Shown here: piece by piece, positions 8,433-45,544 of the stretch | Layout: every line of letters begins with the position of its first letter | Position numbering within the stretch: the stretch's first letter is position 1 | Source of the DNA: Calditrichia bacterium | GTDB taxonomy: Bacteria; Calditrichota; Calditrichia; JAJRVZ01 | Length of the DNA stretch: 64,000 bases | Assembly (NCBI GenBank): GCA_963777955.1 | Contig: CAVZSQ010000019.1 | Location: forward strand, 128,001-192,000 | Direction of reading: 5' to 3' | Position numbers and translations under genes: made by a program | Notes under the pieces: model-generated | What the model saw: the letters and a program-made list of their open reading frames with translations, nothing else | Databases searched by the model: none | What the model was told of the DNA's origin: nothing

Positions 8433-8486
8433 ATTATAGCAATACCTGGTTAAAGATATGTTAAGATTATGTTAAGATTTTGTGAA
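8433..8486 (-). promoter_or_regulatory. Pho-box-like promoter of the second PiT gene
   Basis: Minus strand TTCACA-N5-TTAACA-N5-TTAACA-N5-TTAACC (exact 11-bp period), then TATAAT 9 bp downstream. Confidence 0.8.
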
Positions 8487-8606
8487 ATTAATGATCCATC
8501 CCCCTGATCCCTTTCCCCGGTGCCCCATACGCTTGTGCAGAGTATTACAGATGCAAGTCGAAAGAATAAAGCCAGGGGACTAATGGAGGAATGGTTCGGA
8601 TGAATC

Positions 8607-18576: not shown

Positions 18577-18669
18577 ACCTCGCTTATATAATTTAATGAT
18601 TTTGAATTATTTTCAAAAAAATTCAAAAGATAACCTCACAAACTTTGATTGCGATCTTTATCATTCTGC

Positions 18670-21478: not shown

Positions 21479-21497
21479 AGTGGTACACCTTCTCATT

Positions 21498-22688
21498 TTA
21501 CCAGATAAAATGAATATGATTTAAAAGACGATTATCGGAGTCCGCAAAGCGGTTATTCAACCACTGGTACTCCAGATCTGCCTTCCAGTGTTTGGTGAAG
21601 TTGTAATGCAACCGGACCGTGTTGGCTAACTGGTTTTCATATTCATAGATTTCTTCAAAACGGTAGCGGGTATAGTTCACACCAACCGAAGCAATCAGGT
21701 TCTTCCAGATTTCATAGCCATAATCGAACATCACCCCGACCTGATCGCCAAGGTCTCCGGTCTCATAAAGCAGATTGATCGCGCCGCGATTGTCATTAAC
21801 TCCCAGCATCAAACGCTGTCCCGAGGCCTCTTCCAGAGAGATATACTGGACTCCGGCCGATAAACCATAGTCGGCGGTCAAAGCATAATTCGTATTCAGA
21901 CCGGCCTGGGTATATGGTTCGATCTCAAAGATTTTGAAATAAGAATCGGCATAAATTTGTGGAGTCTGTTGTTTGGCAAAAACACTGACAGCCAGCTTAT
22001 TGGAGGGGGCGTACCTGGCCGAGGCATACAGACGATGCAGGGTCGAGTTCAAAATATCATAATGTGTCTGCAGGATGAATTGGATCTTTTTAAGTGAATA
22101 ATTATTCAGATTCAAACCCACAATCTGCCATTGGTTCTCATTTTCCCTTAACCTCTGCAGGTAAGCCAGCTGCACATTAGTGTTGTAAAAATGACGATAG
22201 GTCAACGCTGAACCATAAACCGTGGCAGCATCGAATTCGTATACTTTCATTTCACGGAACAGATTGGATTCCACGCCGCCGAAGATCTGCCAGCTGAGAT
22301 CGGCCACTGGTTTCAGGGTCAGGTTTACACCATCCAGGCTACCAAAGGGAATTCCGGCATGCAGGAACTGTCGGCCGATTTCGAAATCCAGCAAATTATC
22401 AAAAAGATTACTGGCTGAGACCGACATCCGGTAAGCCCGCCAGGGCAGCTGACCCGGTTGCGGCTGGCTCAGCCAGCGCATGGAAACATTCAGGTTCAGA
22501 TTGTTCCAATTTTCGGCCAGGGCAGAGAAACGCAGGAATTGATAAACATTGAGAGCCGACTTTGATCCTTCCTGTTCATAGACGTACAGGGAGGAAGTAT
22601 AGCGGCCGCTCGTTTCAATGGTTTGCGCTGTAATACTATGAATACAGAGCAACGTGGCGATGAGTGAAATCAGATAATTTTTCTTCAT
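21498..22688 (-). CDS. Outer-membrane beta-barrel (porin of a porin-cytochrome conduit)
   Basis: Signal peptide; alternating aromatic/polar strands; GRQ..GxxDG motif; C-terminal aromatic residue (HIHFIW); first gene of the cytochrome operon. Confidence 0.75.
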   Translation of the reverse strand: MKKNYLISLIATLLCIHSITAQTIETSGRYTSSLYVYEQEGSKSALNVYQFLRFSALAENWNNLNLNVSMRWLSQPQPGQLPWRAYRMSVSASNLFDNLLDFEIGRQFLHAGIPFGSLDGVNLTLKPVADLSWQIFGGVESNLFREMKVYEFDAATVYGSALTYRHFYNTNVQLAYLQRLRENENQWQIVGLNLNNYSLKKIQFILQTHYDILNSTLHRLYASARYAPSNKLAVSVFAKQQTPQIYADSYFKIFEIEPYTQAGLNTNYALTADYGLSAGVQYISLEEASGQRLMLGVNDNRGAINLLYETGDLGDQVGVMFDYGYEIWKNLIASVGVNYTRYRFEEIYEYENQLANTVRLHYNFTKHWKADLEYQWLNNRFADSDNRLLNHIHFIW

Positions 22689-22745
22689 AGGCAAAACCTA
22701 TTGTTAATTAAAGTTATTGAGGCATTTAAAACTCTCTATAAAACG

Positions 22746-22761
22746 TCAAATATCATGCCAA
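22746..22761 (-). promoter_or_regulatory. Sigma54 (-24/-12) promoter of the porin-cytochrome operon
   Basis: TTGGCATGATATTTGA on the minus strand, about 60 bp upstream of the start. Confidence 0.7.
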
Positions 22762-22913
22762 ATTATAGTTTTTAATCGGTTTATTATAATCACGACTTTT
22801 AGCCGGAATTCGGTAATAAACCGGGCCAATTGAACTAAATTTATTAAAACTTAACAAATTATCGAATATTTATTTGTTTTAACTGGAATCACTTTTACAT
22901 GTTAGAAAAAATA

Positions 22914-22952
22914 TGAGACATGAAAGCGACACTGTGAGAATTTCAGGTCTCA
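22914..22952. promoter_or_regulatory. Putative enhancer (bEBP) sites
   Basis: TGAGACATGAAAGCGACA and TGAGAATTTCAGGTCTCA; the first matches 25441-25458 at 15/18. Confidence 0.6.
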
Positions 22953-23031
22953 AAATAAAACAGCCGAGATAGATAGGGAAATAAAATCGTTCGTATTGAT
23001 GTGATATTAAATCAGAATTTGAGTATTAAAT

Positions 23032-23079
23032 AAAAAAAAGACCTTCCGGAATAATTCTCCCCCAGCTCCGGAAGGTCTT
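23032..23079 (-). terminator. Rho-independent terminator of the 9-heme lipoprotein gene
   Basis: AAGACCTTCCGGA...TCCGGAAGGTCTT followed by a T-run on the minus strand. Confidence 0.8.
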
Positions 23080-23111
23080 CGATCAGAGTATAATATATTT
23101 ATACTCTTTTC

Positions 23112-24824
23112 TTACCAGTTACTGGCTACAGCTTTCCGATCCGAAGTCAGAATGGCAGCACCGGGAACTTTATTATCCATCAAATGCAAATAACTCTGCT
23201 GTAATAATTGTACAGCATAATCGGGATTATGAACACCATGACTGCCGTCCTCCTCGACGAATATTAAATTCCATCCTGCTTCCCGCTGGATGTAGGTGGA
23301 ATTGTTCGTATCGCCCAGAGCCTCAGCCAAGGATATACCGCCGGTAGTGTCCAGGCCGGTAGTGATCAAGGCATCTTCCAGCATAGTCATCAAGCCGGCA
23401 ACTTCGTCCTGAACCCCTTCTACCTGGTTATCGCCATCAAAATCTTCCAGGGCCATAATATCTTTAAACGATGATATAGTACCATGGCAATTGGAGCATG
23501 CTAACACAGTGGGTTCAAAGGTATGACCGGTCTTGGCCGGTTCCGTTTCGCTCACATATTCAACCCGGTTTAAATGGCAGGTTTTGCAACTATTCTGGAC
23601 ATACAGATGGGAAGGTTGTGCCCAGACAAAATCTTCCGCGGCAACAGCCTGGTAGCCGGTTTTGGCAGCCATCATATCCCCCTGCACGCTGCCATGAGGT
23701 CCAAAGTTAGACCGGCCAATGGCAATTTGCGATTCGCCTCCGCGACGGGCATGGTGACATTGCATACAAAGTTTGCCGACACCACCGTCAGTGATCAATG
23801 GAGATTCGCCATTAGCAGTCACCAGCTGAACATCAGCAATGGTCCGTAGCTGCGCCGGATTAGTTGCGTCGTGGGAATCATGACAGGTAGTGCAGCCCAT
23901 CGATTGAAAAGGCGCCACGGTAGTATCCGGTCTGGCGCTTACCGCCCCGCTGCCATAGAATGTACTCAGATCTCCGGATAAACGAACACCCGCGGCAACC
24001 CCTTCATGACAACCCTGGCAAGATACCGCATCGGCTTCGGCCATAGAACTATGAGCAGATTCCTCCCATTCCGAATAATAAGGATGGTGGGTGCCTTCAT
24101 GACATTTCGCACAATTCTCAGCCGACCAGTCAACAGTGTTACCGCCGCCGGTAAGGTGACCTGAAGCGGCACCGTGGCAGTTTTCGCACTGGACGTTTTC
24201 GAACTTGGCAATCGGTGCTTCGTCATAGCCGCTGTTACCCAAAGGTCCCTCATACCCCACGGCATGGCAGGGATTGCAGTAGGAAGCCGGATGACCGCTG
24301 CCCTGCAGAGTTGCCCAGGCACCGGCATGACCGGTTTCAGACCAATCGTTATATTCACTGGAATGGCAACCCGAACAGGCTGAGGAACCCACGTAATAAG
24401 GCGTCTGGTATGGTGCATACATCCCGACACCCATAGTACGCAGACCCAGACCTATAAGTTGTCCCCCGACCACATGTACACTCACTTCATAAGCCCCGGC
24501 GTCATCCGGTGCTTTCCAGACAACTGTATCCCCAGTGGCACTGTTAAAAGTACCGCCGGTGGCGAACCAGTTATAAACCAGCGTTCCAACCTGATATCCG
24601 GTTGGAATCGTGATGTCTGCGGTAAATGTTACTTTACCCCCCTGGGCTACAGAATCATTGCCGCTGACATTAATGATCTCGACTGCGATCGTATCGTGGA
24701 CGACTTTCTCGACTTCCACGATCTTCTCTTTTTCCGATTCGCAGGATGCCAGCAACATCAATCCCAGCAAGGCTACCGGAACGATCAGCGCCAGTAATTT
24801 GTGCATAATAGAGTTTTTATGCAT
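23112..24824 (-). CDS. Nonaheme cytochrome c lipoprotein with an N-terminal Ig/PKD-like domain
   Basis: LLASC lipobox; Y.W..TGG...V.WKAP...G.Y Ig-like segment; 9 CxxCH motifs; C-terminal helices ending DGSHGVHNP. Confidence 0.85.
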   Translation of the reverse strand: MHKNSIMHKLLALIVPVALLGLMLLASCESEKEKIVEVEKVVHDTIAVEIINVSGNDSVAQGGKVTFTADITIPTGYQVGTLVYNWFATGGTFNSATGDTVVWKAPDDAGAYEVSVHVVGGQLIGLGLRTMGVGMYAPYQTPYYVGSSACSGCHSSEYNDWSETGHAGAWATLQGSGHPASYCNPCHAVGYEGPLGNSGYDEAPIAKFENVQCENCHGAASGHLTGGGNTVDWSAENCAKCHEGTHHPYYSEWEESAHSSMAEADAVSCQGCHEGVAAGVRLSGDLSTFYGSGAVSARPDTTVAPFQSMGCTTCHDSHDATNPAQLRTIADVQLVTANGESPLITDGGVGKLCMQCHHARRGGESQIAIGRSNFGPHGSVQGDMMAAKTGYQAVAAEDFVWAQPSHLYVQNSCKTCHLNRVEYVSETEPAKTGHTFEPTVLACSNCHGTISSFKDIMALEDFDGDNQVEGVQDEVAGLMTMLEDALITTGLDTTGGISLAEALGDTNNSTYIQREAGWNLIFVEEDGSHGVHNPDYAVQLLQQSYLHLMDNKVPGAAILTSDRKAVASNW

Positions 24825-24866
24825 TCATTCACCCCCATTGTTAAAAGATTAGTCATTTGTTCCTGT

Positions 24867-25251
24867 TTAATAAATTCTTTTTGCAATCAATTCAATTACT
24901 GAGTTTAGCGAATCGGTCAGCTCCGATTCTGCTATAGGTTTAATAGCATAATATTGAATTCCCAGCTGACTGATCTCTTTACCCAGACTCTATGCCGGTA
25001 TCCGACGTGGCGAAAAAAATATCCACATGCTGGTTAATCTTACGGACCGAACGCAGAATATGTGCTGAATAAGGGCTCAGAAAATCGTCATCAACAATGA
25101 TCAGAGAAGGATTCTGGGCACAGATGGTCGACATGACATCCAGTGGATCTGCAGATCCATCGTAAATCATCAGAGCATTTTTTTGCCTGGGAATTGCGTT
25201 CCCGACCATCTGATTAAGATTTTGATCCCTGGATATTAACATTATTTTCAT
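24867..25251 (-). CDS. Single-domain response-regulator receiver (atypical); one frameshift
   Basis: Receiver pattern LIIVDDD, FATSD and YAIKP (shifted frame); stop at 24867. Confidence 0.65.
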
Positions 25252-25264
25252 TGCAGGCATCCTG

Positions 25265-25281
25265 TGCAATTGATATGCCAA
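25265..25281 (-). promoter_or_regulatory. Sigma54 promoter for the receiver/9-heme lipoprotein unit
   Basis: TTGGCATATCAATTGCA, near-consensus. Confidence 0.82.
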
Positions 25282-25421
25282 ATACTCTGAAAAATACCCT
25301 TATAAATTAAAAATTATGTGTAATATTATATAAATATGTATAATATTTACTAATATTGTATATGATATAATAGGGACAATGGAGCACACTGGCCATTAAT
25401 GTCCCTGATCAGTTCTTAAAG

Positions 25422-25458
25422 TGAGCGTACCTTGTCGCAGTGGGACATGAATGTGACA
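25422..25458. promoter_or_regulatory. Putative enhancer (bEBP) sites
   Basis: TGAGCGTACCTTGTCGCA and TGGGACATGAATGTGACA. Confidence 0.6.
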
Positions 25459-25503
25459 AATCCCTTATTTAATCTTACCAGCTTTTTGCTTATATTTGTC
25501 ATT

Positions 25504-26979
25504 ATGTTCAGGACCATCAACAGTAAATTTATTTTCTTCACTATCATCTTTATCATGCTAAGTGTTGGTCTGCCCACTACTTTTTTGATCCGCCAGTTCA
25601 GGGCTAATTTTGAACAACGTACCAGCGCCTTGCTGGAAACCACCATGGAAGTGGTTCATGGCGACGTAGTCAACGTAATGTTGAAATATGATCACAAAAG
25701 GGTTCAGGACATTATCGATAAAATAATGCGCTATAAAATCATCCGGCATCTGCGTTTTTTCGATACGGTGGGCAATATACGATTTGCTACCGATACCACC
25801 GAGATCGGTAGAAACATCGATGATGTAGATAAGGGACACGTCCAGATCGGCGAAATAGATCACAAGGTTATCCTGTTACTGGAAAATAAAAAAGTATACA
25901 CCTCCACCCGTGCTATTGTAAATCTGCCGGAGTGTCAATCCTGTCACGGGATTAATCCGGTCATAGGTTATCTGGATATCGATGTTAATCTGACCCGGGC
26001 CGAGAGATATTTTTATACCGGCTCATTTCATATCATCTTTCTGGCTATCGCTATAGTGCTGTTGTTATTTTTCGGATTTTATTACCTGTTCAACCGCTTC
26101 ATCAGAAAACCGCTGGACCGTTTAACCCTGGCGCTTAACCAGGTGGATGAGGGACAGCTGGATACCCGCCTGCCGGCAAAAAAAGCAGATGAAATCGGCA
26201 TTCTGGAACGACAGTTCAACACCATGGTTTCCAACCTGCAGGCTTCCCAGCAGAAGATCGAAGAACTGCACTTCGAACAACTGCAGCGGGCGGATAAACT
26301 GGTAACCCTGGGTGAATTGGCCGCCGAAATGGCTCATGAGATCAACAACCCTGCCGGTATTGTCATGTCCCGCGCTGATTATCTGCACATCAAGGCTGAT
26401 GAGAATTTGGCCTTAAAAAAATACCAGGATGACCTGCAGGTGATCATCAATCAGGTCAATAAAATATCGCGGATTACCGGTAATATTTTAAAGTACAGCA
26501 AAAAATTACCCAAGCAATTTCATACTGTGGATTTAAAGCAGGTTCTTGAAGAAAGTCTCAATGTACTGGAACCGCGCCTGGCTATGAAAAAAATTGATCT
26601 GCACAAAGAATTCAAAGATAATGATTGTCAGATTTCAGGCGATGCCCAGCAACTGGAACAGGTTTTTACCAATTTGATCAACAATGCCGTTGACGCGATG
26701 TCCCAGGGCGGATTTTTAACCTTAAGCCTGGAGCGCAATGAACAGCATCAAATTCAAATTAAAATCAGCGACAGCGGTAGCGGTATCAGTGCGGATCTGC
26801 TGGACCAGATCTTTACTCCATTCTATACCACCAAGCCCCCCGATAAAGGTACGGGTCTGGGACTGTATATTGTCAAAAATATCTGCAAAAACCATAATGC
26901 CGATATTCATTGTACCAGTTCACCCGGCCTGGGGACTACTTTTACGGTAACTTTCAGAGGGAATGATTTGAAAAAATGA
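25504..26979 (+). CDS. HAMP sensor histidine kinase with a periplasmic heme-c motif
   Basis: Two TMs flanking CQSCH; HAMP; AHEINNP H-box; N, G1, F and G2 boxes. Confidence 0.9.
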   Translation: MFRTINSKFIFFTIIFIMLSVGLPTTFLIRQFRANFEQRTSALLETTMEVVHGDVVNVMLKYDHKRVQDIIDKIMRYKIIRHLRFFDTVGNIRFATDTTEIGRNIDDVDKGHVQIGEIDHKVILLLENKKVYTSTRAIVNLPECQSCHGINPVIGYLDIDVNLTRAERYFYTGSFHIIFLAIAIVLLLFFGFYYLFNRFIRKPLDRLTLALNQVDEGQLDTRLPAKKADEIGILERQFNTMVSNLQASQQKIEELHFEQLQRADKLVTLGELAAEMAHEINNPAGIVMSRADYLHIKADENLALKKYQDDLQVIINQVNKISRITGNILKYSKKLPKQFHTVDLKQVLEESLNVLEPRLAMKKIDLHKEFKDNDCQISGDAQQLEQVFTNLINNAVDAMSQGGFLTLSLERNEQHQIQIKISDSGSGISADLLDQIFTPFYTTKPPDKGTGLGLYIVKNICKNHNADIHCTSSPGLGTTFTVTFRGNDLKK

Positions 26980-28346
26980 AAAAGATCTTGATCGTTGACG
27001 ACGAAGAAGATATGCTGCAAAGTTTACGCAAAATTTTATTGCAGCGGCAGTCCTACCAGGTAACGACCATAAAGGACAGCAGGCAGGCTTTACAACTGGC
27101 CGGTCATGAAAAATTTGATCTGATTATAACCGATTTCAAAATGGGCGATATTTCCGGAATCGATATATTAAAAGCGGCCTCCGGTAAATTTCCCGATGCC
27201 AAGGTGATCATGATCTCCGGGTACGGCACAATCGAAGCCAGCGTGCAGGCGATGCAGGAAGGCGCCTTCGATTTTATCGAAAAACCATTTACCTCTAAAA
27301 AATTATTCGCCTGCATTGACCGCGTATTCGGACCGCAGCTTGAAGCAAAAACCTTCGGCAGTGATGCCGGGGGGAAGGTGGTCGAACTGCCGGGTATTAT
27401 CTTTAAAAGCAAACAGATGTCCGAGATAATAACTCTGGTCGGCAAAATTTCTTCCGGAGATTTAAATATACTGCTTACCGGTGAAAGCGGCACCGGCAAG
27501 GAATTAATAGCACGGGCAATCCATAATCTGAGCAAGCGCAGTATCCATCCCTTCGTGCCGGTGAACTGCGGTGCCCTGCCGGAGAATCTGTTTGAAAGTG
27601 AATTATTCGGCCACGAGAAAGGGGCTTTTACCGGTGCCATCAAGACCAAACCGGGATTGCTGGAATTTGCCAACCAGGGTACTTTTTTCTTTGACGAGAT
27701 CGGCGATCTCAGTTTGACCCTGCAGGTAAAACTATTACGCATGCTGGAACAACGCCAGATCCGGCGGGTCGGCGGCCAGAAAGAAATTGATATTGATGTA
27801 AGGATTATTGCCGCCACCAATAAGCAACTGGCCGAAGCCGTCAAAGAAAACAAATTTCGTGAAGATCTGTATTATCGTCTGAATACCATGCAGATCGAGA
27901 TTCCACCCTTGCGCGAACGGACTGATGATATTCTGCCGCTGGCCAATAATTTTCTCGCCGAGTTATGCCGCAAGAATGAAAAAATCGTTACCCGCTACTC
28001 CTCCGAAGCGGAAGAATCCCTCAAATTATATAACTGGCCGGGAAATGTCCGGGAGTTGCAGAATATGATAAGCCGGGCTTATTTTCTCACCTCCTCCCGG
28101 GTAATTCAAAAAGCAGATTTACCGCTGCCGGTCAGCGAGAAAACTTTTTATATCGATCAGCAGATGTTTGATCTATCCTATAAGCAGGCCAAAGATGCGG
28201 TCCTGGAAAAATTTGAAATCGAATATCTGACCGGCCAGTTGCGTAAATATAAAGGTAATATTTCCATAACTGCTGCCAAATGCGGAATTGACCGGCGTTC
28301 GATTCATCGCTTAATTAAAAAATACAACATTATGTATAAAGACTAG
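26976..28346 (+). CDS. Sigma54-dependent (NtrC-family) response regulator
   Basis: Receiver domain, GESGTGKE, GAFTGA, WPGNVREL, Fis-type HTH. Confidence 0.95.
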   Translation: MKKILIVDDEEDMLQSLRKILLQRQSYQVTTIKDSRQALQLAGHEKFDLIITDFKMGDISGIDILKAASGKFPDAKVIMISGYGTIEASVQAMQEGAFDFIEKPFTSKKLFACIDRVFGPQLEAKTFGSDAGGKVVELPGIIFKSKQMSEIITLVGKISSGDLNILLTGESGTGKELIARAIHNLSKRSIHPFVPVNCGALPENLFESELFGHEKGAFTGAIKTKPGLLEFANQGTFFFDEIGDLSLTLQVKLLRMLEQRQIRRVGGQKEIDIDVRIIAATNKQLAEAVKENKFREDLYYRLNTMQIEIPPLRERTDDILPLANNFLAELCRKNEKIVTRYSSEAEESLKLYNWPGNVRELQNMISRAYFLTSSRVIQKADLPLPVSEKTFYIDQQMFDLSYKQAKDAVLEKFEIEYLTGQLRKYKGNISITAAKCGIDRRSIHRLIKKYNIMYKD

Positions 28347-28356
28347 GGGGTGGATT

Positions 28357-29865
28357 ATGAAACTTAAGATTCCTGCTTCCATGCGAAATTGGATTTCATT
28401 AATCGGCACTATGATTGCGCTGATCTGCTTTTTTATGATCGTTTTCCTCTTCTTTATCACCATGATCCTGGGTCAGGGCGGCTCTTATATCGGCCTGGTA
28501 ATTTATGTGCTGTTACCGGCGGTGATGATTATGGGATTATTGTTAGTCCCCATAGGTATGTATTTCCAGCTGCACCGTCGAAAAAAATCGGGACAAATTC
28601 AGGAGCTGACCTGGCCGCGGCTAGATTTAAATGACTTGAAACAACGCCGCTTCTTCTTCAACTTTGCCATTGTAACTACTATTTTTCTGTTTATCTCGGC
28701 TGTAGGCAGTTATGAAGCTTTTCATTTTACCGAGTCGGTCCCCTTCTGCGGTACCATTTGTCATGAAGTCATGAAACCCGAATATACGGCGTACCAGCAT
28801 TCGGCCCATGCCCGCGTGGCTTGCGTCGACTGCCATGTAGGTGAAGGAGCAAACTGGTACATGCGGTCGAAATTATCCGGATTGTACCAGATTTACGCCG
28901 TGACCACCAACATCTTCCCCCGGCCCATTCCGACTCCGGTTAAAAACCTGCGCCCGGCCCGCGAAACCTGCGAACGCTGCCACTGGCCGCAGAAGTTTTA
29001 TGCCCAGAAATTCAGGGCCGAACGGCATTACCTGAATGACGAGCAGAATACCGAATGGGATTATCAGCTGATTATGAAAATCGGTGCAGAATATTCAGCC
29101 CTCGGACTGGTCGAAGGTATTCACTGGCATATCAATCCCGATGTGAAGATCGAATACCTGGCCAATAATGAAAAAAATCTGGAGATACCGTGGGTACGCT
29201 ATACCGATCAAAAAAATAACCGGGTGATCACTTATCTTAACGAAGAAAATCCCATCGATCCCGACACGGTCAAAAACCAAAACATACGCACCATGGATTG
29301 CATGGATTGTCATAACCGGCCATCGCACAGTTACAAACCGCCTGCATTTTTCGTCAATGAGGCGCTGACTTCCGGTTTAATTCCCAAAGAATTACCCCAG
29401 ATCAAATCACTGAGTATGCAGATCTGTGCCATTGAGTTCAATCAGACCGATTCCGCCCGGCAGTACATTCAAAAATCTGTCAGCGAGTTCTACCAGAGTA
29501 ATTATCCGCAAATTTATCAGGAGAAAATGCAGCTGGTTGAGAAAGCCTGGACTGGCTTACAGGAAGCGTATCTGCAAAACATCTTTCCGGAAATGAAAGT
29601 GCGCTGGAATGCTTATCCCAACCATATCGGACATGTAGAATTTCAGGGATGTTTCCGCTGCCATGATGATAAACATAAAAGCTCTGACGGGTATACAATC
29701 GCCAAGGACTGCAATCAGTGTCATCATATCATTGCCCAGGGTAGTCCCGGCCAGATGTCTATTTCAACTCTGGATAAACCCCTGGAGTTTAAGCATCCGG
29801 TTGATGTGGGCGATGCCTGGCGGGAAGGATACTGTACCGATTGTCATACAGGCTTAAATCCCTGA
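28357..29865 (+). CDS. ImcH-like NapC/NirT-family membrane cytochrome c (7 hemes)
   Basis: 3 N-terminal TMs; CGTICH plus 6 CxxCH; LRPARETCERCHWP, GIHWH and CMDCHNRPSH motifs. Confidence 0.85.
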   Translation: MKLKIPASMRNWISLIGTMIALICFFMIVFLFFITMILGQGGSYIGLVIYVLLPAVMIMGLLLVPIGMYFQLHRRKKSGQIQELTWPRLDLNDLKQRRFFFNFAIVTTIFLFISAVGSYEAFHFTESVPFCGTICHEVMKPEYTAYQHSAHARVACVDCHVGEGANWYMRSKLSGLYQIYAVTTNIFPRPIPTPVKNLRPARETCERCHWPQKFYAQKFRAERHYLNDEQNTEWDYQLIMKIGAEYSALGLVEGIHWHINPDVKIEYLANNEKNLEIPWVRYTDQKNNRVITYLNEENPIDPDTVKNQNIRTMDCMDCHNRPSHSYKPPAFFVNEALTSGLIPKELPQIKSLSMQICAIEFNQTDSARQYIQKSVSEFYQSNYPQIYQEKMQLVEKAWTGLQEAYLQNIFPEMKVRWNAYPNHIGHVEFQGCFRCHDDKHKSSDGYTIAKDCNQCHHIIAQGSPGQMSISTLDKPLEFKHPVDVGDAWREGYCTDCHTGLNP

Positions 29866-29975: not shown

Positions 29976-30500
29976 TCATCGCAAATTAATTTGGTCTGAA
30001 CAGACGGTACAAAAACTATCCCCTTTCACATCCAGATCGTCGACCGTATTGGAACTGGCCATGACGCATTTATAATTATGACAATGGCGCAGATTCTGTA
30101 AATGGCCATATTCATGAATGGTTTCTTTGACTAAGCGCCCGATCAGTTTATGTTCATCGGCCGGCAATCCGTAAAATTCATTGATCAACCGGCAACTGGA
30201 TACGATTGCCGCGCTGCCCCCCAGACCGGCCAGACCGAAGACAAAGGTCAAAACGGGGATATATAAATCCAGGCTGGTATAGATTATGACTTTATTTTGC
30301 TGTGTGGAAGGTCTGCTGACCTTTTTAATAATTTTTATCGCATCGTATTGTTCCCGGTTCTGATCGTAACAATCCTGAACCGTTAGTTCCGTATCGTAGC
30401 GGGCAGCTATTAAACCGCTGCGCTCACACAGCAGGGAGATCAGATTATCGAGCAGATTATTATGATTGAATTGGACGGTAATAATTTCGAGTTCAGGCAT
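29976..30500 (-). CDS. Archaemetzincin-family (M54) Zn metalloprotease
   Basis: FVFGLA, HEYGHLQNLRHC, CVM Met-turn, FCxxC. Confidence 0.85.
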   Translation of the reverse strand: MPELEIITVQFNHNNLLDNLISLLCERSGLIAARYDTELTVQDCYDQNREQYDAIKIIKKVSRPSTQQNKVIIYTSLDLYIPVLTFVFGLAGLGGSAAIVSSCRLINEFYGLPADEHKLIGRLVKETIHEYGHLQNLRHCHNYKCVMASSNTVDDLDVKGDSFCTVCSDQINLR

Positions 30501-31851
30501 TTTCCGGGCGTTTTATTCCGTACTTCTGCAATTTTTTATAGATGGTAACCCGATCTATGTCCAGTACTCGGGCAGCATTAGAAATATTCCAGTTATTTTT
30601 TTCCAGTACACTGATAATATGCGCTTTTTCAACATCGTCCAGTGACAGGGTGGTTTTAAACGAAGTCTGCAATTCAACATGGTTAAGCAGGAAATCTGCG
30701 CCGTTCAGAACATCGTCCTGTGTTACCACCATAGCCCTTTCGATGGCGTTTTCCAGTTCCCGCACATTCCCTTTCCAGGGATATTTCATCAGCATTTGCA
30801 AAGCAGCAGGGGCAATGCCTTCCACCGCTTTGTTCATTTTGGCGCGGTAATGGGCGATAAAATGCTCAACTAATTCAGGAATGTCTTCCGGCCGCTCACG
30901 TAAAGGTTTAATGTTGATCGTATACACCTGTAAGCGGTAATACAGATCTTCGCGGAATTTTCCATCCTTCACGAATTCTTCCAGATTGGTATTGGTAGCC
31001 GAAATCACCCTGAAATCCGATTGAATGATTTCATTGCCGCCCAGACGGGTGAATTCCCTGGTTTCGATTGCCCGCAGCAAATCCACCTGCGTTTTGGGTC
31101 CGATAGTACCGATCTCATCCAGGAATAAAGTTCCGCCGTTGGCAATTTCTAGTTTCCCTTTGCGCCGGTACATAGCCCCGGTAAAGGCTCCTTTTTCATG
31201 TCCGAATAATTCACTCTCCAGCAGGGTTTCGGTCATCGCCCCGCAATTAACCGTAACGATGGGAAAGAAACGTCGATCGCTCTGGGCATGAATGGCCTGG
31301 GCTACCAGTTCTTTGCCGGTGCCGCTTTCGCCGCGGATCATCACCGTTGTCGAAGTCTTAGCCACGGTTTCGATCAGTTTCTTGACCTCGGCAATATAAC
31401 GGCTTTTGCCGATTATCTCCGGCGGCCGGGTCAACTCTTCCAGACTTCCTTTCAAACCGATGTTCTCAATGGTCAGGCGCCGCTGTTTTTCCGCATTACG
31501 GACCAGATGACTTAAACTATCGGGATCGAACGGCTTGGTGATATAATCAAAAGCCCCTTCTTTTAAAGCCTGTACGGCAGTATCTACCGCTGCGTAGGCC
31601 GTGATCATGATTACCACGGCATCTTTGTCAATTTCTCTGATGCGCCGGTGCAATTCCATGCCATCCATTCCCGGCATTTTAATATCGATAAAATAAATAT
31701 CCCAGCGGGTCGTACTCATTTTGTTCAGGGCTTCTACCGCATCCCGCGCTGTATCGACCTGATAACCATCTTCCGTAAACCAGCCGGACAATGACTCGCG
31801 GACGATTTCTTCATCATCCACTATCAGTATTTTTACATCATTCTTAGCCAT
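30493..31851 (-). CDS. Sigma54-dependent response regulator
   Basis: Receiver domain, GESGTGKE, GAFTGA, HTH. Confidence 0.95.
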   Translation of the reverse strand: MAKNDVKILIVDDEEIVRESLSGWFTEDGYQVDTARDAVEALNKMSTTRWDIYFIDIKMPGMDGMELHRRIREIDKDAVVIMITAYAAVDTAVQALKEGAFDYITKPFDPDSLSHLVRNAEKQRRLTIENIGLKGSLEELTRPPEIIGKSRYIAEVKKLIETVAKTSTTVMIRGESGTGKELVAQAIHAQSDRRFFPIVTVNCGAMTETLLESELFGHEKGAFTGAMYRRKGKLEIANGGTLFLDEIGTIGPKTQVDLLRAIETREFTRLGGNEIIQSDFRVISATNTNLEEFVKDGKFREDLYYRLQVYTINIKPLRERPEDIPELVEHFIAHYRAKMNKAVEGIAPAALQMLMKYPWKGNVRELENAIERAMVVTQDDVLNGADFLLNHVELQTSFKTTLSLDDVEKAHIISVLEKNNWNISNAARVLDIDRVTIYKKLQKYGIKRPENA

Positions 31852-31853
31852 AC

Positions 31854-33452
31854 TCAGGACGCCTTTAATTGTTTAACCGGAATTTTGATGATAAAGGTAG
31901 AACCTTGATTAACTGCTGATTCGACCCAGATTTCTCCGCGGTGCCGTTGCACGATGGCATATACCGCCGAAAGTCCCAGACCCACCCCCTTAACTGCATT
32001 TTTAGTGGTGAAGAAAGGTTCAAATATCTGTGTTTTCAGATCTTCCGGTATTCCTTTACCTGTATCTTTAACATACAGGTATACCGCTTGCTCAGACAAT
32101 TTCAACTCCGTTTTGACCGTGAGCACCCCTTCATTCTCCATTGCTTCCACCGCATTGACGTACAAAGCCAATAAAGCCTGTTTGATCTGACTGTCATCAA
32201 TCTCTATGGCCGGCAGGTCGGTTTGGAATTCACGAATCAGTTTGATATTATGTAATTTCAGATGATGGGCAATCAAGTCGATGGAATTATCAATAACATG
32301 GTTAAGGTCATGGGCTTTGATCTCGATCGCTTCCTGACGGGAGAACAGCAACATATTTTTTACGATCGTACCGCTGCGCTCGCTTTCTGTTTCGATCATC
32401 CGCAGATACTTGAGCATGGCTTCTTTTTCAGGGATAGGTGTATTTTCTTTGATTAATTTTTTCTGGATTAATTTGCTGTAAGTAAGTATGCCGGCGATGG
32501 GATTATTCAGCTCATGGGCTACGGTCGCCGATAATTGTCCCAGTGAAGCCATTTTTTCAATCTGCAGATTACGTTTCTGCGTTCGTTCCAGTTCCTGTGT
32601 CTTTTCCTGAACCCGGTTTTCCAATTGATTGGACCAGCTGGTGATCTCCCGTTTTGCTTCGCGCAGATCCGCAGTCATTCGATTAAAGGAACGGGCCAGA
32701 CTGCCCATTTCATCGCCGGACGTGGATTTAATCTGATAACCGAGATTGCCGTTGGAAACTTCCCTGGTACCAAGGATCAGTCTTTTTACCGGTACATGTA
32801 CAAAAAACCAGATCATTATCCCCACGGTCAGGGCCAGGGCCAGCGTGATGGCAATATTGGTCGAGATCATGCGCGAGCGGTTTTGTTCAACAATAGTATC
32901 CATCTTTTCCAGGGAAAGACTTATGCGCAATAATCCCAGATAACTATCCGCCTGTTGATGCGCATGACAGTCCGCTGTATAACAACTTGGTTCGTTGGCA
33001 ATCGGTCTGACATAAACCATCAGGCGTTTTCCCCGGGCATCAAAAAAAATATGATGCCAGGCTTCGACAGGTTTTTTTCTCAGTTCGCCCGAGGATTCAT
33101 GACAGGGTGAACATTCCCGTTCGGCAAAGTCGGCTGTGCGATTTATTTCTTCTTCGGCAGTCGAGAAGGCAATCCTGCCGGTTTTATCAAAAAGGGTAAC
33201 TTTCTGGATTCCTTCCTTTTGGACGATCCCTTTCATAATGGAATTAGTCGATTCCGTGGCATTCAGCAGCATAGAATTTCTCATAGACCCGGCGACCACT
33301 TCGCTGGTCCGGTAAGCGCATTGGCGGGCGATCTCGGCATATTGCTCGGATTCTGTTTTGATATAATAGAGTGAAAAACCAACGGTCAGGATGATCAGAA
33401 CCACAAAGACAAGCACAAAGAGTTTAAAACTGAGCAGGCGATAAAAATACAT
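31854..33452 (-). CDS. HAMP sensor histidine kinase with two periplasmic heme-c motifs
   Basis: CSPCH and CYTADCH between the TMs; AHELNNP H-box. Confidence 0.9.
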   Translation of the reverse strand: MYFYRLLSFKLFVLVFVVLIILTVGFSLYYIKTESEQYAEIARQCAYRTSEVVAGSMRNSMLLNATESTNSIMKGIVQKEGIQKVTLFDKTGRIAFSTAEEEINRTADFAERECSPCHESSGELRKKPVEAWHHIFFDARGKRLMVYVRPIANEPSCYTADCHAHQQADSYLGLLRISLSLEKMDTIVEQNRSRMISTNIAITLALALTVGIMIWFFVHVPVKRLILGTREVSNGNLGYQIKSTSGDEMGSLARSFNRMTADLREAKREITSWSNQLENRVQEKTQELERTQKRNLQIEKMASLGQLSATVAHELNNPIAGILTYSKLIQKKLIKENTPIPEKEAMLKYLRMIETESERSGTIVKNMLLFSRQEAIEIKAHDLNHVIDNSIDLIAHHLKLHNIKLIREFQTDLPAIEIDDSQIKQALLALYVNAVEAMENEGVLTVKTELKLSEQAVYLYVKDTGKGIPEDLKTQIFEPFFTTKNAVKGVGLGLSAVYAIVQRHRGEIWVESAVNQGSTFIIKIPVKQLKAS

Positions 33453-33591: not shown

Positions 33592-34308
33592 TTACTCATT
33601 ATGAGCCAGCTCTTTGCTCAACAAGAATTCCTCTGCCATTCCATGCCAGTTCTGGGGTGCGATTTCCCGTAAAAAACAGTCCTTGATTTGCCCTCCATCG
33701 GCCAGTACCGGTATCGTATCAGCGCTGATCAGTTGGTTCAATTTGTCCACAGTGTGTTGCAGCCAGGTATAGGCGATTTTCCCGGTGAGCAGATTTTTCA
33801 GATGAGTGCTCAAGCTGGGCACCCGCATCAACATGAACCAGCCATTTTCATAAGGATCTGTTTGCCGAAACTCACCGGGTTTATTCACTTTTTCATTTAC
33901 CTGCATTACTTCTCCGCTGACCGGCGCCAGGAATGAAAGCGATTTACCGTCAATCTCCGCGCTCCAGGCTTTTGAACCCTGCTGCAGATATTGTCCTTTT
34001 TCAGGTAAATTCCAGCGCGCTTCGGCACCTACTAACTTGCGGGCAAAATCATCGATTCCAATTTTAACGATATCGCCTTTTTCCGGTTTGACCCAGGTAT
34101 GACCCTGGTGGTAAAAATAACTGCCATCAAGATAAAACCAATCGATCAGTCTGATTCTTTTTTTACTTCCGGCCACAGCCAGTGCTGCTCCGGTAACCGG
34201 TGTATTCATCCAGCGCAGGAAGAAGTACATCAGGATTAAGAAAAAGATAACCAGGACATATTCGAATCCTTTGGTCGAAAAGATATCTATATATTTGAAA
34301 CCTTCCAT
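33592..34308 (-). CDS. Membrane-anchored glycine-cleavage-H-like protein
   Basis: N-terminal TM; YHQGHTWV, IGIDDFA, APVSGEV..VN and DPYENGW motifs; C-terminal ADGG. Confidence 0.8.
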   Translation of the reverse strand: MEGFKYIDIFSTKGFEYVLVIFFLILMYFFLRWMNTPVTGAALAVAGSKKRIRLIDWFYLDGSYFYHQGHTWVKPEKGDIVKIGIDDFARKLVGAEARWNLPEKGQYLQQGSKAWSAEIDGKSLSFLAPVSGEVMQVNEKVNKPGEFRQTDPYENGWFMLMRVPSLSTHLKNLLTGKIAYTWLQHTVDKLNQLISADTIPVLADGGQIKDCFLREIAPQNWHGMAEEFLLSKELAHNE

Positions 34309-35594
34309 GTTTCCAACTCCTTTTCTTTGAGATCATAAATATTATCAAATTTGCCATTCTTGCCAGCGCTGGCCCACAGCGGGGATTCACTCAACACCGG
34401 CATACGATTTACTATCCAGCGCAATACGACGATCTCGACAAAGATTACAGCCAGAGTAACTTCTATTTCCATCCAGGAGGGTATATATCTTTGTAGCGCC
34501 TGCCAGTTATAGGCGATAACCGAGATATTCAGACGGTTCAGAACAATACCGATCAGCGTAGTGACGGCCGCAAATTTTATCAGCTGCATGTTGCGATGCC
34601 GGAAGGCCTGTACGAATAAGATAAGCGGAACTACCACAAAACCAATCATTTCTACCAGATACCAGTAGCCCCAGCCGGTATCGATATAAGTCCAGTGCTT
34701 CTCATGAATGAACATCAGGACTTTCAGAAAAGCATAAACAAACATGCTGCCGGCGCAGATTTTGGTCAGGCTGAAAACGATATTATCATGTGATTGCTCG
34801 ATCCTGGGACTGAGCAGGTTTCTGAATACTTTATGGCTGATACTTCCTTCGAGAATCACCATGGACAGACCGGCAAAGATGCTGGAGATGAAGAACAGAA
34901 TGGGAATGAATTCTGAATACCACAGCGGGTGTATCTTGCTCTTGGCCATCAGGAACAACGCCCCCAAACCAGCCTGATGCAGGGTGGAGAGGGTGATGCC
35001 AATCACCACCGTGCCCAGGGTCAGGGAATGCAGAATTTTACGGATTCTTTTCCAGCCCAGCCATTCGGCAATGGCTGGTGAAAATTCAATAAATTCAGCC
35101 AGCATATACAGTAAAAAATGCCAGGCCACCAGAAACATTACCGAACTTACCCCGAATGAATTGCCGATGATCGGATTGACCACATTCCAGGGACGGCCCA
35201 GATCGAGTAACAGCGCTCCTGTGTAAAACACATAAGCCAGCAGCCCGTTGAGTACTGTTATCCTGGCGATCGGATGGTATTTTTCCAGATTCAGGACATA
35301 AACCAGGAACACCAGCACATAGGCACCGCCGGCGAAGGCGACGCCGGTGATCACATCAAATCCGATCCAGATCCCCCAGGGAAAATCCTGGGACAGATTG
35401 GTGACTGAACTCAGTCCGAAGATGAAACGAATAATGATCAGCACGGCTCCGACACCAATAATTATTGCCGACAGAACATTGAACGGGGTGATTAGTTTAC
35501 CCTTGGGTTTGAGTTCCTGCCGCAGGAATTTGAAAAATCTATGTCCTTCCGACTTGAGTAATAATTTTGAATCGACTGCTGTTTCCATCTTCAC
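34287..35594 (-). CDS. NrfD/PsrC-family membrane subunit (HybB/HmcC-like)
   Basis: TNLSQDFPWGIWIGFDV, DLGRPW, STLHQAGLGALF and HPLWY motifs. Confidence 0.88.
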   Translation of the reverse strand: MKMETAVDSKLLLKSEGHRFFKFLRQELKPKGKLITPFNVLSAIIIGVGAVLIIIRFIFGLSSVTNLSQDFPWGIWIGFDVITGVAFAGGAYVLVFLVYVLNLEKYHPIARITVLNGLLAYVFYTGALLLDLGRPWNVVNPIIGNSFGVSSVMFLVAWHFLLYMLAEFIEFSPAIAEWLGWKRIRKILHSLTLGTVVIGITLSTLHQAGLGALFLMAKSKIHPLWYSEFIPILFFISSIFAGLSMVILEGSISHKVFRNLLSPRIEQSHDNIVFSLTKICAGSMFVYAFLKVLMFIHEKHWTYIDTGWGYWYLVEMIGFVVVPLILFVQAFRHRNMQLIKFAAVTTLIGIVLNRLNISVIAYNWQALQRYIPSWMEIEVTLAVIFVEIVVLRWIVNRMPVLSESPLWASAGKNGKFDNIYDLKEKELETWKVSNI

Positions 35595-36446
35595 TCCTCC
35601 CCCTCAGATTTTTCCTTCCTGTCTTTGGTAGCAGCATGCAAAGCCAGCAGGAAAGCCGGTAACAGAATATCTACCACAGGCACACTATATAGAAACGTTT
35701 TGGTATGTTCCGGATACGGCTTTTCACCCAGATCGGTGCGGAATCCGATCTTTTCAAAAGGAACGGCCGAGAGGTATAACACGGAACTTCCCCCCACCTC
35801 CTGTTCGCCATATATATAATGAAGATAGGAATCGGGTTGCGTATAAATTCGCTTGTACGCTTCCTCTAATAAATCCCTGCGGCGCCCAAAAACGATTGCT
35901 TGTTCCGGGCATTCAGTGGCACAAGCCGGCTGATTACCGGTTTGCAGCCGGTCCCAGCATAAAATGCACTTCTGTATTTTGGGTATCGCTTTATCATATT
36001 CGAATTTTGGAATTTCATAAGGGCAGGATATCATACAAAACCGGCAGCCCAGACATTTACTTTCACGCCAGATTACAGCTCCGTCAGTCCGATTTATATA
36101 AGGCCTTGGAAACACAGGCAGCCACACAGGCTGGTTGATTGCAGTGCATGCATTGTTTCTTGACAAATATTTCCTGTCCCTCAACTTCAAACCGGTTAAC
36201 CAGGGTCCACTGTGTCGCCGAAGTATTACGCGGACCCTGAAACATGGCATCCAGGTCGGGTTCCGGCAGATCATGGGCTTCGGCACAGGCAACGGAACAG
36301 GTCTGGCAGCCCACACAGCGGGTCGTATCGATTAACAACCCTGAAAACTCTTTTTCAGATTCACTCTCCTGTGCACGAATCTGATCCAGCGGGAGAGCCG
36401 ACAGGCCGATCACCCCCAGAGTTTTGACAAAGTTTCTCCTATCCAT
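35591..36446 (-). CDS. Tat-exported 4Fe-4S dicluster protein (HybA/HmcB-like) with C-terminal TM; one frameshift near 36090
   Basis: MDRRNF; CVGCQTCSVAC, CMHCNQPACVAAC, CLGCRFCMISCP, KCILC...PACATECP. Confidence 0.88.
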
Positions 36447-36497
36447 AAATTGTATGCTCCTTATTTCAGCTGTCGCTGTAAGTTTCAGTGGTTCAGT

Positions 36498-36578
36498 TTA
36501 ATGAACTGTTTTGGAATGATGGACCAGATCAAAAGACAGTAGCAATATAATGGCCAGGATAAGACAAAGAATTACCAT
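36498..36578 (-). CDS. Putative 26-aa membrane micro-protein
   Basis: AAGGGGGA RBS-like site, then MVILCLILAIILLLSFDLVHHSKTVH; lies inside the operon. Confidence 0.45.
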   Translation of the reverse strand: MVILCLILAIILLLSFDLVHHSKTVH

Positions 36579-36597
36579 GATTTCCCCCTTTTGAATT

Positions 36598-37275
36598 TTA
36601 CTTTAAGTTTTGGTGATATGGGAAAAATTTTTGTACGATCAGGGCCCAATCCTGATTGGACATCTGCCTGATATACTCCGGATCGATCTTACCGCCGTCA
36701 TTCAAATAATGTCCCTGCTGGGCATACAGATACAAATCGTCGCGTAATTTTGTGTTAAGCAGTGCCGCCTGGGCATGTGGTAATAGATTATTAGCCTCAC
36801 TGTTCAGACTATCTGCTTTAATTTTGAGGATCCATGATTTTTCAACCTGTGACGACGGCAGGGGCAGATTCATTTTACAGGCCGGATTAATGCCGACAAC
36901 CTCCCCGGACAGCGGTGCCAGTTGCGCCAGAGCATGTTCGCCCAGCTGCACATCCCAGATTTTAGTTCCCTGGGTAAGATGGGATCCTACCAGAGGTAAT
37001 TGCTGTATCTTTACCTGGTCAGTAAACAGGCTGGAAATAAAGTCATCATATCCCACATATAGATATCCCTGATCCGAAGGAACCACCCAGGTGTGGCTAA
37101 GATGATACAGCCGGTTTAATTCATTACCTAGCGGTAGCAGGGCTTTATCCGGACTTAAAAATATCGGCGATTTATCCGATTTGTCTTTTTCTTTTAAAAT
37201 TCTTTCTTCACGGCGGGTCAACCAGTCTATCCCCAGGAAGACCAGAATAGTCAAAAGAACCAGCGCGAATACCAT
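36598..37275 (-). CDS. Membrane-anchored glycine-cleavage-H-like protein
   Basis: N-terminal TM; YHLSHTWV, VGYDDF, APLSGEVVGIN and NDGG motifs. Confidence 0.78.
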   Translation of the reverse strand: MVFALVLLTILVFLGIDWLTRREERILKEKDKSDKSPIFLSPDKALLPLGNELNRLYHLSHTWVVPSDQGYLYVGYDDFISSLFTDQVKIQQLPLVGSHLTQGTKIWDVQLGEHALAQLAPLSGEVVGINPACKMNLPLPSSQVEKSWILKIKADSLNSEANNLLPHAQAALLNTKLRDDLYLYAQQGHYLNDGGKIDPEYIRQMSNQDWALIVQKFFPYHQNLK

Positions 37276-37316
37276 TTTTTACTCCTTTCAAACTACTTTC
37301 TTCACTTTTCAGTATC

Positions 37317-37332
37317 TCAAAATCTATGCCAG
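37317..37332 (-). promoter_or_regulatory. Sigma54 promoter of the GcvH-like/FeS/NrfD operon
   Basis: CTGGCATAGATTTTGA on the minus strand, about 40 bp upstream of the start. Confidence 0.7.
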
Positions 37333-37613: not shown

Positions 37614-38508
37614 TTAAATCAAAATATCATCTGACCAGCCAATTTTAATCAATTCAATTTTGGTTGGATCTGCTGTACCCAGATGGTGACGTGTGTCGGC
37701 TAGAAATATATGTTTTGGCGGAGGATTGATCGGGCGATCTTCCTTAAAAAATAGTCTGCGTTTGGTCTGAATTATGCGTACACCTGTGGCATCCACGGCT
37801 ACCGGATCAAATCCCACTAATAAACCTTTATACGCCCAGGTGTATTTGGCACTGAAATGATGGGGACCGACACCGTGAAATAAGGGGGTAAGCATTACCA
37901 GAATATTTAGGCGGGTTTTATTCTGGACCAGCGGTAATTTCCAGATTGCAGCCAGATCAGCGCAGGAATCATCATGATAATCCCAGGGTCTCTCTACAAA
38001 CATTATATAATTCTTGATCAGAGTACCGACTCCCGACCAATCATGGGTACGCATCGGCCGGATATTGATCAAAGCCGTGGCTTTCATAAAGACCGGATCA
38101 GTAAGCAAACTTCGATCATTAATACTGATATTTGCGGGAGTCACACCGCAATCTGTAACCCGCATTTTAATATGTGATTCTAATTCGGGAGGAGTGGCCA
38201 GGCGCGACCAGATATTGGTCTTGATTCCCACCACATCGTCCCGATGTAATGATCTGCTTCCAGGCTGCAGCTGCATCCGCTTGATCAGTCAATGCGGAAA
38301 CGGCCTGATCAAGCATGCCCCTGAGCAGGTCAGCGTTCAGCTTATTATTGGCATCAATCACAGCTGCGTCGCGGATCAGTACCACTCTGCTTTTCGTCGC
38401 AGTTTGCGCAAATCCCTTTGCCGGCAGATTCAAATAAAGCGCACCGGCAATTGCAGCAGCGGAGGTATTTTGCATAAATTCACGCCGGGTATAGACTTTC
38501 TTCTTCAT
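37614..38508 (-). CDS. DUF362-family protein with Tat signal; one frameshift
   Basis: TRREF signal; VVGIKTN, RTHDWSG...IKN and DPVAVDA motifs. Confidence 0.75.
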
Positions 38509-45528: not shown

Positions 45529-45544
45529 TTGGCATGAGGTTTGA
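45529..45544 (+). promoter_or_regulatory. Sigma54 promoter of the STAS-Exb-TonB operon
   Basis: TTGGCATGAGGTTTGA, about 40 bp upstream of AAGGAGG-ATG. Confidence 0.7.

Follow-up and report, generated by a model that had tools for sequence, protein, structure and literature searches.

An Hmc-like iron-sulfur/NrfD quinone module with two lysine-less GcvH-like proteins beside a haem-motif sigma-54 system in a Calditrichia bacterium

Why would a membrane quinone module be encoded with two copies of the glycine-cleavage H-protein fold, and what could these copies do if the lysine that carries the lipoyl group is missing? The question is raised by an operon of a Calditrichia bacterium (GCA_963777955.1, contig CAVZSQ010000019.1) within a 64,000 nt stretch that is called the window below, and whose numbering is used for coordinates. 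On its minus strand, a sequence-only reading had described five open reading frames (ORFs) in the order GcvH-like, micro-ORF, twin-arginine translocation (Tat) 4Fe-4S protein, NrfD and GcvH-like. Order, strand and coordinates agreed with our analysis, but a frameshift in the iron-sulfur (FeS) gene had been overlooked, as had the genes for a kinase, an activator and an archaemetzincin (29976-33452), up to which the conserved unit extends.

Judged from genomic context and homology, the operon appears to encode an HmcB-C-D-type quinone module together with two GcvH-fold domains that likely act as cytoplasmic docking or signalling parts towards its own haem-sensing sigma-54 system, and not as electron carriers; we favour this reading with moderate confidence. 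It was reached because related GcvH-like domains are fused to receiver, haemerythrin, tetrahaem and periplasmic-binding domains, and because the cassette also occurs without FeS and NrfD genes. A bolder form is offered tentatively: the lysine-less GcvH fold with its DGG tail might be an undescribed signal module with interchangeable inputs (receiver, haemerythrin, cytochrome, periplasmic-binding or HmcD) that, together with the archaemetzincin, ties sigma-54 transcription to redox complexes, which are NrfD-type in this operon and HdrA-type in others. No natural target or ligand of a bacterial archaemetzincin would have been known before the tail. The unit comprises the following features, with lengths in amino acids (aa) and TM for transmembrane.

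37317..37331, minus strand: predicted promoter motif of the sigma-54 (-24/-12) type, TGGCAT-N5-TTGA, with 56 bases between it and the first start codon
36598..37275, minus strand: H_up, 225 aa, N-terminal TM helix, Lys-less GcvH-like domain (PF01597, 38.4 bits) and helical tail with NDGG
36498..36578, minus strand: micro-ORF, 26 aa, hydrophobic (MV-hydrophobic stretch-D), resembling the TM helix of H_up
35591..36446, minus strand: HmcB/HybA-type 4x[4Fe-4S] protein bearing a twin-arginine signal and, at its C-terminus, a TM tail; frameshifted in the assembly
34287..35588, minus strand: NrfD, an HmcC/HybB-type membrane quinone subunit (HmcC model 413 bits, HybB 258)
33592..34308, minus strand: H_down, 238 aa, HmcD-like TM segment, Lys-less GcvH-like domain and DGG tail
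31854..33452, minus strand: sensor histidine kinase, periplasmic domain with CxxCH and Cx4CH haem-binding-type motifs, then HAMP, HisKA and HATPase domains
30493..31851, minus strand: sigma-54-dependent response regulator, REC-AAA+-HTH with intact GAFTGA, separated from the kinase gene by a 2-base gap
29976..30500, minus strand: archaemetzincin-family Zn-metalloprotease-fold protein, Glu of HExxH present, no signal peptide seen, gene overlapping the regulator gene by 8 bases

GcvH-like domains without the lipoyl lysine

Both H-like proteins passed the cut-off of the Pfam family GCV_H (PF01597; 68.4 and 38.4 bits) and scored 69 and 41 with the NCBIfam GcvH model, far under its cut-off of 117. 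The AlphaFold model, which covers H_down only (pLDDT 82.5), had the GcvH fold (Foldseek E 7e-11 and TM-score 0.86 by target length, to 1onl). A search of the ESM Atlas returned only GcvH-named clusters, and a plasmid search gave only partial GcvH-like matches. In ungapped HMMER alignments to solved H-proteins, the position of the lipoyl lysine was taken by G121 (EIDGKSL) in H_down and by Glu (QLGEHAL) in H_up, the same residues that the by-eye alignment of the sequence-only reading had placed there; its view that a lipoyl fold has been repurposed was supported, and the domains are probably non-lipoylatable. For the relatives, the residue seven positions before the AP/SP motif was scored; applied to the genome's own GcvH, this rule gives Lys. 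Rows lacking the motif were omitted. Lys was found at the site in 2 of 54 H_down relatives and 11 of 103 H_up relatives, in none of 22 soluble and 1 of 25 TM-anchored fusions to receiver (REC) domains, and in 9 of 70 proteins of a later set. By alignment, both GcvH-like proteins lack the lipoyl lysine, and so do most of their relatives. The canonical, lysine-bearing GcvH of the same genome is encoded on another contig, adjoining gcvP. No conserved cofactor site was seen in the GcvH-like domain, and no gcvP/T/L, sHdr or ligase gene was found among 89 unlabelled neighbour proteins (cluster representatives of at least 250 aa, from NrfD-type loci). Clustered at 50% identity, the GcvH-fold family comprises 514 clusters that match the profile at E up to 1e-30, some of which may be canonical GcvH.

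On which side of the membrane these domains lie was read from charge and fusion order. More Lys and Arg residues follow the TM helix than precede it in 47 of 54 H_down and in all 105 H_up relatives, and in tetrahaem-HmcD-GcvH and periplasmic-binding-protein-TM-GcvH fusions (P0188, P0228, P0326, P0327) the sensor-like part stands before the helix and GcvH after it. For these two reasons the domains are predicted to face the cytoplasm, away from the multihaem network, and a periplasmic location was rejected. The proposal that they are adaptors of the redox module was not supported in that form, since they are cytoplasmic by this prediction and also occur with a kinase, an activator and an archaemetzincin where FeS and NrfD genes are absent. 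Besides the 22 soluble and 25 TM-anchored REC-GcvH proteins, receiver fusion was seen in P0201, and a haemerythrin-GcvH-like fusion in P0055.

The N-terminal TM helix and the DGG tail, noted before for the two window proteins, are family-wide, with a DGG-type motif in 53 of 56 H_down-type and 104 of 108 H_up-type relatives. TM peptides of 76-102 aa ending in LG[LF]T[ML]ADGG are encoded in these operons without any GcvH domain (L002:9668-9937, L113:393-701, L197:9517-9747), and because such small peptides carry LG[LF]TMADGG alone, the tail looks like a portable motif. Neither the tail nor the small peptides had a credible match in Pfam or NCBIfam.

Further architectures were observed. GcvH-like domains are joined to a periplasmic phosphate-binding-type domain (one protein named Mariniphaga), haemerythrin or c-type cytochromes in P0326-P0329, P0055, P0188, P0228 and P0304, and three GcvH-like repeats are fused to FAD-linked oxidase and CCG/FeS domains in P0250 (1391 aa). 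An acetate-CoA ligase with a C-terminal GcvH-like domain and a QDG tail lies in such an operon at L162:5173-7815, a single case that is possibly an assembly artefact.

The redox core and its relatives

Both halves of the split FeS gene matched the NCBIfam model HmcB best and HybA next, the HmcB cut-off being inapplicable to the gene as split, and the protein has the twin-arginine signal and C-terminal tail of the HmcB type. NrfD was best matched by HmcC, at a score under the equivalog cut-off of 550, and is 29% identical to E. coli HybB in an alignment that is gap-free across residues 30-222. It keeps D78, R109, Y119, D129, S149, Y161, E168, E175 and H204. Among the HybB positions taken from the excerpted text of PMC8076601, 12 of 16 are identical in NrfD, including R89, Y99, E148 and H184, and according to the same excerpt replacing any of these four lowers hydrogen oxidation. 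The quinone-site and proton-path residues of NrfD/PsrC dimeric redox modules are kept, with one exception, HybB E133, which is Leu here. The earlier proposal of a periplasm-facing FeS/NrfD quinone module was supported.

The N-terminus of H_down gives the core its identity. The HmcD model NF045712 matched 40 of 56 H_down family members at E up to 1 (best 3e-7); the window's own H_down had no match to it. A model built from the first 38 columns of the family recovered free-standing HmcD peptides of ~48 aa (48-53 aa; E 2e-14 and 1.6e-7), one of which passes the HmcD cut-off. As judged by these profile searches, the H_down N-terminus is an HmcD homologue in fused form, and the core is for that reason read as HmcB-C-D without HmcA, HmcE and HmcF; the 16-haem HmcA, HmcE and HmcF are missing from the window block, nor are they a conserved feature of relatives. 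The label 'orphan' was not supported as it stood: the core belongs to the known Hmc/Nhc family, of which it is the HmcB-HmcC-HmcD arm, and many relatives include a cytochrome. The accompanying statement that hydrogenase, molybdoenzyme, cytochrome and gcvP/T/L genes are lacking is right for the window block; for cytochromes it fails beyond it, since a 4- or 13-haem cytochrome is part of the operon in many relatives.

A hydrogenase-2 or complex iron-sulfur molybdoenzyme that has lost its catalytic subunit was rejected, as the homologous operons have no such subunit: none of the 89 neighbour representatives had a Pfam match to NiFe-hydrogenase or molybdopterin oxidoreductase, and the NiFe and molybdopterin genes of the genome sit away from the locus. 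This absence is not new in itself, because dimeric NrfD-type modules may act alone with soluble periplasmic partners, according to the available part of PMC6303296. FeS/NrfD/multihaem clusters are described in PMC9386147, in the accessible sections of which H-like genes are not mentioned, and in an excerpt of a Dissulfuribacter proteomics study (PMC13490349) an orphan NrfD is mentioned together with regulator-like genes and with genes for a tetrahaem cytochrome and an FeS protein, possibly a case of the present system.

The company of the GcvH-like genes was surveyed in 47 genome loci plus the window, 80 metagenome loci, 13 loci picked by their archaemetzincin, and 40 loci from genomes related to a deltaproteobacterial (Desulfobacterota-type) match. 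The 35 metagenome loci of at least 7 kb, some of them duplicates and many ending at contig edges, contained NrfD in 32, at least two GcvH-like genes in 32, FeS in 30, the activator in 25, the archaemetzincin in 23 and the kinase in 22. Of the 301 genomes in the deltaproteobacterial-type set, 45 gave a match at 1e-45. NrfD had no match in 17 of 39 loci, which had been selected to include weaker matches, and one of the 17 (L177) is probably a gene-calling miss. These 17 carried an archaemetzincin in 9 cases and an activator in 11, beside a soluble GcvH-like gene with a Cys motif, and often lay near HdrA-like or formate-dehydrogenase-like genes; the haem-motif kinase was present in 1 of them, as against 18 of 22 loci with NrfD, and the motif is otherwise lacking from their kinases. 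The tailed GcvH-like family travels with the kinase, the activator and the archaemetzincin, and the sensor type and the redox enzyme are swapped. In a paralogous module, FeS-NrfD-13-haem cytochrome-haem kinase-REC/GcvH-TM/REC/GcvH, which fills most of 20 loci in one set, the GcvH-like domain is a receiver output and the DGG tail occurs in none of 47 proteins.

The soluble Cys-motif protein is a third GcvH-like paralogue with an N-terminal C[IV]WMxAG..KLC..C..C motif, possibly a metal site (L046:7486-8271, L182-L196 and others). It is absent from the window's locus, and its N-terminus had no credible match in Pfam or NCBIfam. The ATG of the micro-ORF is preceded by a strong Shine-Dalgarno-like run, and 11 of 25 aligned rows have a comparable hydrophobic peptide in the gap that separates the H gene from the FeS gene, a comparison in which the window is counted, L004 and L042 are one locus, and most of the other gaps are too short for such a peptide; the micro-ORF itself had no credible family match in Pfam or NCBIfam.

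Next to the unit, positions 17742-29865 of the window hold a multihaem cluster that looks like a porin-cytochrome conduit. It encodes cytochromes with 9, 12 and 11 haems, the last of which is joined to a cytochrome b, as well as a probable porin of 398 aa, a NapC/NirT-like protein with 6 haems and a second pair of haem kinase and sigma-54 activator. With its multihaem and probable porin genes (18148-24824, 28357-29865) nearby, it is plausible that quinol is oxidised and the electrons are directed to extracellular acceptors; quinone reduction would fit the HybB/QrcD-like residues as well.

Regulatory genes and the competing explanations

In the periplasmic domain of the kinase, M61, C114, C117, H118, C157, C162, H163 and H165 are invariant in 31 of 31 aligned sequences. 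Its likeness to the sensor family PF21563 is weak and under the cut-off (E 1.4e-4; 1.3 in a second search). The activator is of the sigma-54 type, and rpoN is present in the genome. The motif TGGYAY-N5-TTGH, which was derived from the 22 loci themselves after a strict consensus had been tried, lies no more than 150 bases before the first gene at 17 of 22 loci, against 0.04 expected by shuffling. It recurred at 11 of 58 further metagenome positions (0.1 expected by shuffling), many of which are not operon starts and a few of which overlap the first set. Of the 22 upstream regions, only 2 matched the strict sigma-54 consensus at 2 mismatches, and of those of the REC-GcvH module 0 of 17 did. Single matches are weak, because about 4 per 100 kb occur genome-wide. 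In the window, the looser motif also lies upstream of the cytochrome genes at 25280 and 22760, and a copy at 45530 on the plus strand precedes an anti-sigma-antagonist-like gene and exbB/exbD-like genes.

The archaemetzincin scored 152.7 bits with NF033823, above the cut-off of 145. The catalytic motif HExGHxx[GN]LxHC is present in 21 of 23 archaemetzincins, and the window's protein, a putative protease, has the HExxH zinc motif with the Cys-rich extension. The gene is present in each of the 15 genomes that match H_down strongly (15 of 15) and, in a search with the present query, in 0 of 20 genomes examined that carry only the tail-less REC-GcvH module. Among loci with tailed H proteins it is present in 21 of 26, the five misses ending at or near contig edges.

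By sequence, and by analogy with HybAB and QrcCD, the Tat-exported, tail-anchored FeS protein and NrfD are taken to exchange electrons between the quinone pool and periplasmic partners. These partners may be c-type cytochromes, which are operon-encoded in many relatives and in this genome would come from the neighbouring multihaem cluster. HmcD homology and gene position suggest that the HmcD helix seats H_down on NrfD, leaving the GcvH fold of H_down in the cytoplasm, where H_up is its probable partner. The kinase would read the redox state of its periplasmic haem and phosphorylate the activator, which would switch on the sigma-54 promoter of the operon. Most speculatively, the DGG tail could be a short motif at which the archaemetzincin or the activator docks, and in this way transcription might respond to the presence or state of the membrane complex.

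Several points weigh against the favoured reading. The whole case rests on genomic context and homology. The NrfD-less loci carry the soluble Cys-motif paralogue and not H_down or H_up, and Leu replaces HybB E133 throughout the present NrfD subgroup (16/16). The second haem kinase/activator pair of the window, at 25432-28346, means that the activator of the operon promoter cannot be assigned. Kinship among the genomes makes the archaemetzincin counts of 15/15 and 0/20 non-independent. In the loci chosen by archaemetzincin, the gene adjoins the activator in 12 of 13, and its co-occurrence with the activator is at least as close as that with the DGG tail, which confounds the link between tail and protease. 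L202, L203 and L205 carry an archaemetzincin with no GcvH-like gene in the stretch read, and L171, L172 and L173 keep FeS, NrfD and GcvH-like genes with no archaemetzincin nearby. Finally, the FeS gene is frameshifted in the present assembly.

The strongest rival, which we regard as possible but rather doubtful, comes closest to the sequence-only reading: the GcvH-like proteins would be structural subunits or adaptors of the redox complex that cover the cytoplasmic face of NrfD and bind a soluble redox partner there in place of HmcE/HmcF, the two-component system merely regulating the operon. The fusion to HmcD, the position directly after NrfD and the presence of at least two paralogues in 32 of 35 loci would suit such a role, and the HdrA-like enzymes that often adjoin the NrfD-less relatives are possible docking partners. 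In a single case, L109:5120-7086, NarI-like and CCG/FeS (HmcE/F- or DsrMK-like) genes lie a few genes downstream. However, the 89 neighbour representatives include no conserved cytoplasmic redox partner, the GcvH-like domain has no conserved cofactor site, NrfD has, in the available part of PMC6303296, no cofactor able to pass electrons to the cytoplasmic face, and the repeated fusions to receiver and sensor domains point elsewhere. The same stretch of L109 also has MarR, DsrE-like and TusA-like genes a few genes downstream of the HmcD-GcvH locus.

Local decay, with a genuine FeS frameshift and hence no complex, is compatible with the other explanations and appears improbable. One extra base near 36087-36088 splits the gene, which is intact (284 aa) in a genome of the same genus. 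An assembly error is most likely, with a strain lesion as the alternative, because the congener and near-identical low-depth contigs from three of four sequencing runs (2 studies) lack the extra base, and because unrelated genes nearby are similarly split (about 24985, about 39820 and the DUF362 gene at 37614-38508), a pattern that points to indels introduced by assembly. The remaining genes of the locus are intact and 77-95% identical to those of the congener. Further apparent frameshift splits lie in the window at 14459-15830 and 8450-9623.

A little less probable still is a dedicated processing role for the archaemetzincin, in which it would cleave the DGG tail so that the complex matures or assembles, in the way that HybD processes hydrogenase large subunits, with no feedback on transcription. 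The conserved catalytic motif, the absence of archaemetzincin where the tail is absent and the free TM peptides with the tail motif would all be in keeping with such processing, as would the unknown substrates and structurally suggested triggered activity of archaemetzincins in the consulted part of PMC3427221. Against it, the gene is coupled to the activator and often lies on the strand opposite the H genes.

Lipoylation at a neighbouring Lys (K122 in H_down), with sulfur or electron shuttling as in LbpA or GcvH-L, is very improbable despite a +1 Lys in 43 of 54 H_down relatives and ligase-family genes in the genome: in the H_down model D120-G121 lie in the hairpin turn and K122 opens the next strand, 94 of 103 H_up relatives have His or Arg at +1, the Glu at -3 is kept in only 13 of 54 H_down relatives, the cleft Glu of HEW is replaced by Ser or Thr in 51 of 56 H_down-type and 108 of 108 H_up-type relatives, the neighbours include no ligase, and the tested acceptors described in the accessible text of bioRxiv 10.64898/2026.10.01.755906 all share one strictly conserved Lys. 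This candidate was rejected.

Comparison with known systems

The system is widespread and unstudied, its mechanism testable but unproven, and its redox core familiar. The GcvH-fold family is annotated as glycine-cleavage protein H, by which metabolic reconstructions of anaerobes are misled. Were the domains indeed a signalling module, a cofactor carrier fold would have been reused for regulation, the small HmcD subunit would gain a suggested role, and archaemetzincins, whose natural substrates are unknown according to the available text of PMC3427221, would gain a specific candidate to test. In the open-access literature we found no paper on the GcvH-fold/DGG/archaemetzincin system and, in keeping with the sequence-only reading, no characterised complex of this kind. 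The redox core is a variant of Hmc/Nhc, and the GcvH-fold/DGG/archaemetzincin part is new to the open-access literature searched.

As in Desulfovibrio HmcABCDEF/NhcABCD, a tail-anchored Tat FeS protein (HmcB), an NrfD-type HmcC and an HmcD-type hydrophobic peptide follow each other in the same order; the hmc order B-C-D, with the regulators rrf1/rrf2 encoded alongside, is given in the consulted part of bioRxiv 10.1101/2023.11.02.564894. Unlike Hmc/Nhc, the present operon has no HmcA/NhcA, HmcE or HmcF, its HmcC score is below the cut-off, its HmcD is fused to a GcvH-like domain, and a second anchored GcvH-like protein, the haem-motif kinase, the activator and the archaemetzincin are added. Nhc itself (cytochrome, FeS, NrfD and small hydrophobic subunit, no HmcE/F) was compared by composition; B, C and D are present here and the operon cytochrome is not. 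With HybA-HybB of E. coli hydrogenase-2 the module shares, gap-free, the equivalents of D58, R89, Y99, D109, S129, Y141, E148 and H184, and with QrcC-QrcD it seems, by spacing alone, to share the tested QrcD residues D70, Y110, S138 and Y150 (excerpt of PMC13059093). Unlike both, it has no hydrogenase or QrcA/B genes in the neighbourhoods scanned, and E133 is Leu.

The two H-like proteins share the fold of GcvH, LbpA and GcvH-L and differ from them in the missing lipoyl lysine, the TM anchor, the helical tail of ~65 residues with DGG, and neighbourhoods without gcvP/T/L, sHdr or ligase genes. The kinase sensor weakly resembles the Geobacter haem-PAS sensors GSU0582 and GSU0935 of PF21563 (PDB 3b42), but has two haem-type motifs in a histidine kinase where those have one in a chemoreceptor. 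For the archaemetzincin, CarG of M. xanthus is a precedent of this fold in transcription control (PMC3427221, in the part available); unlike CarG, the present protein has kept the catalytic Glu.

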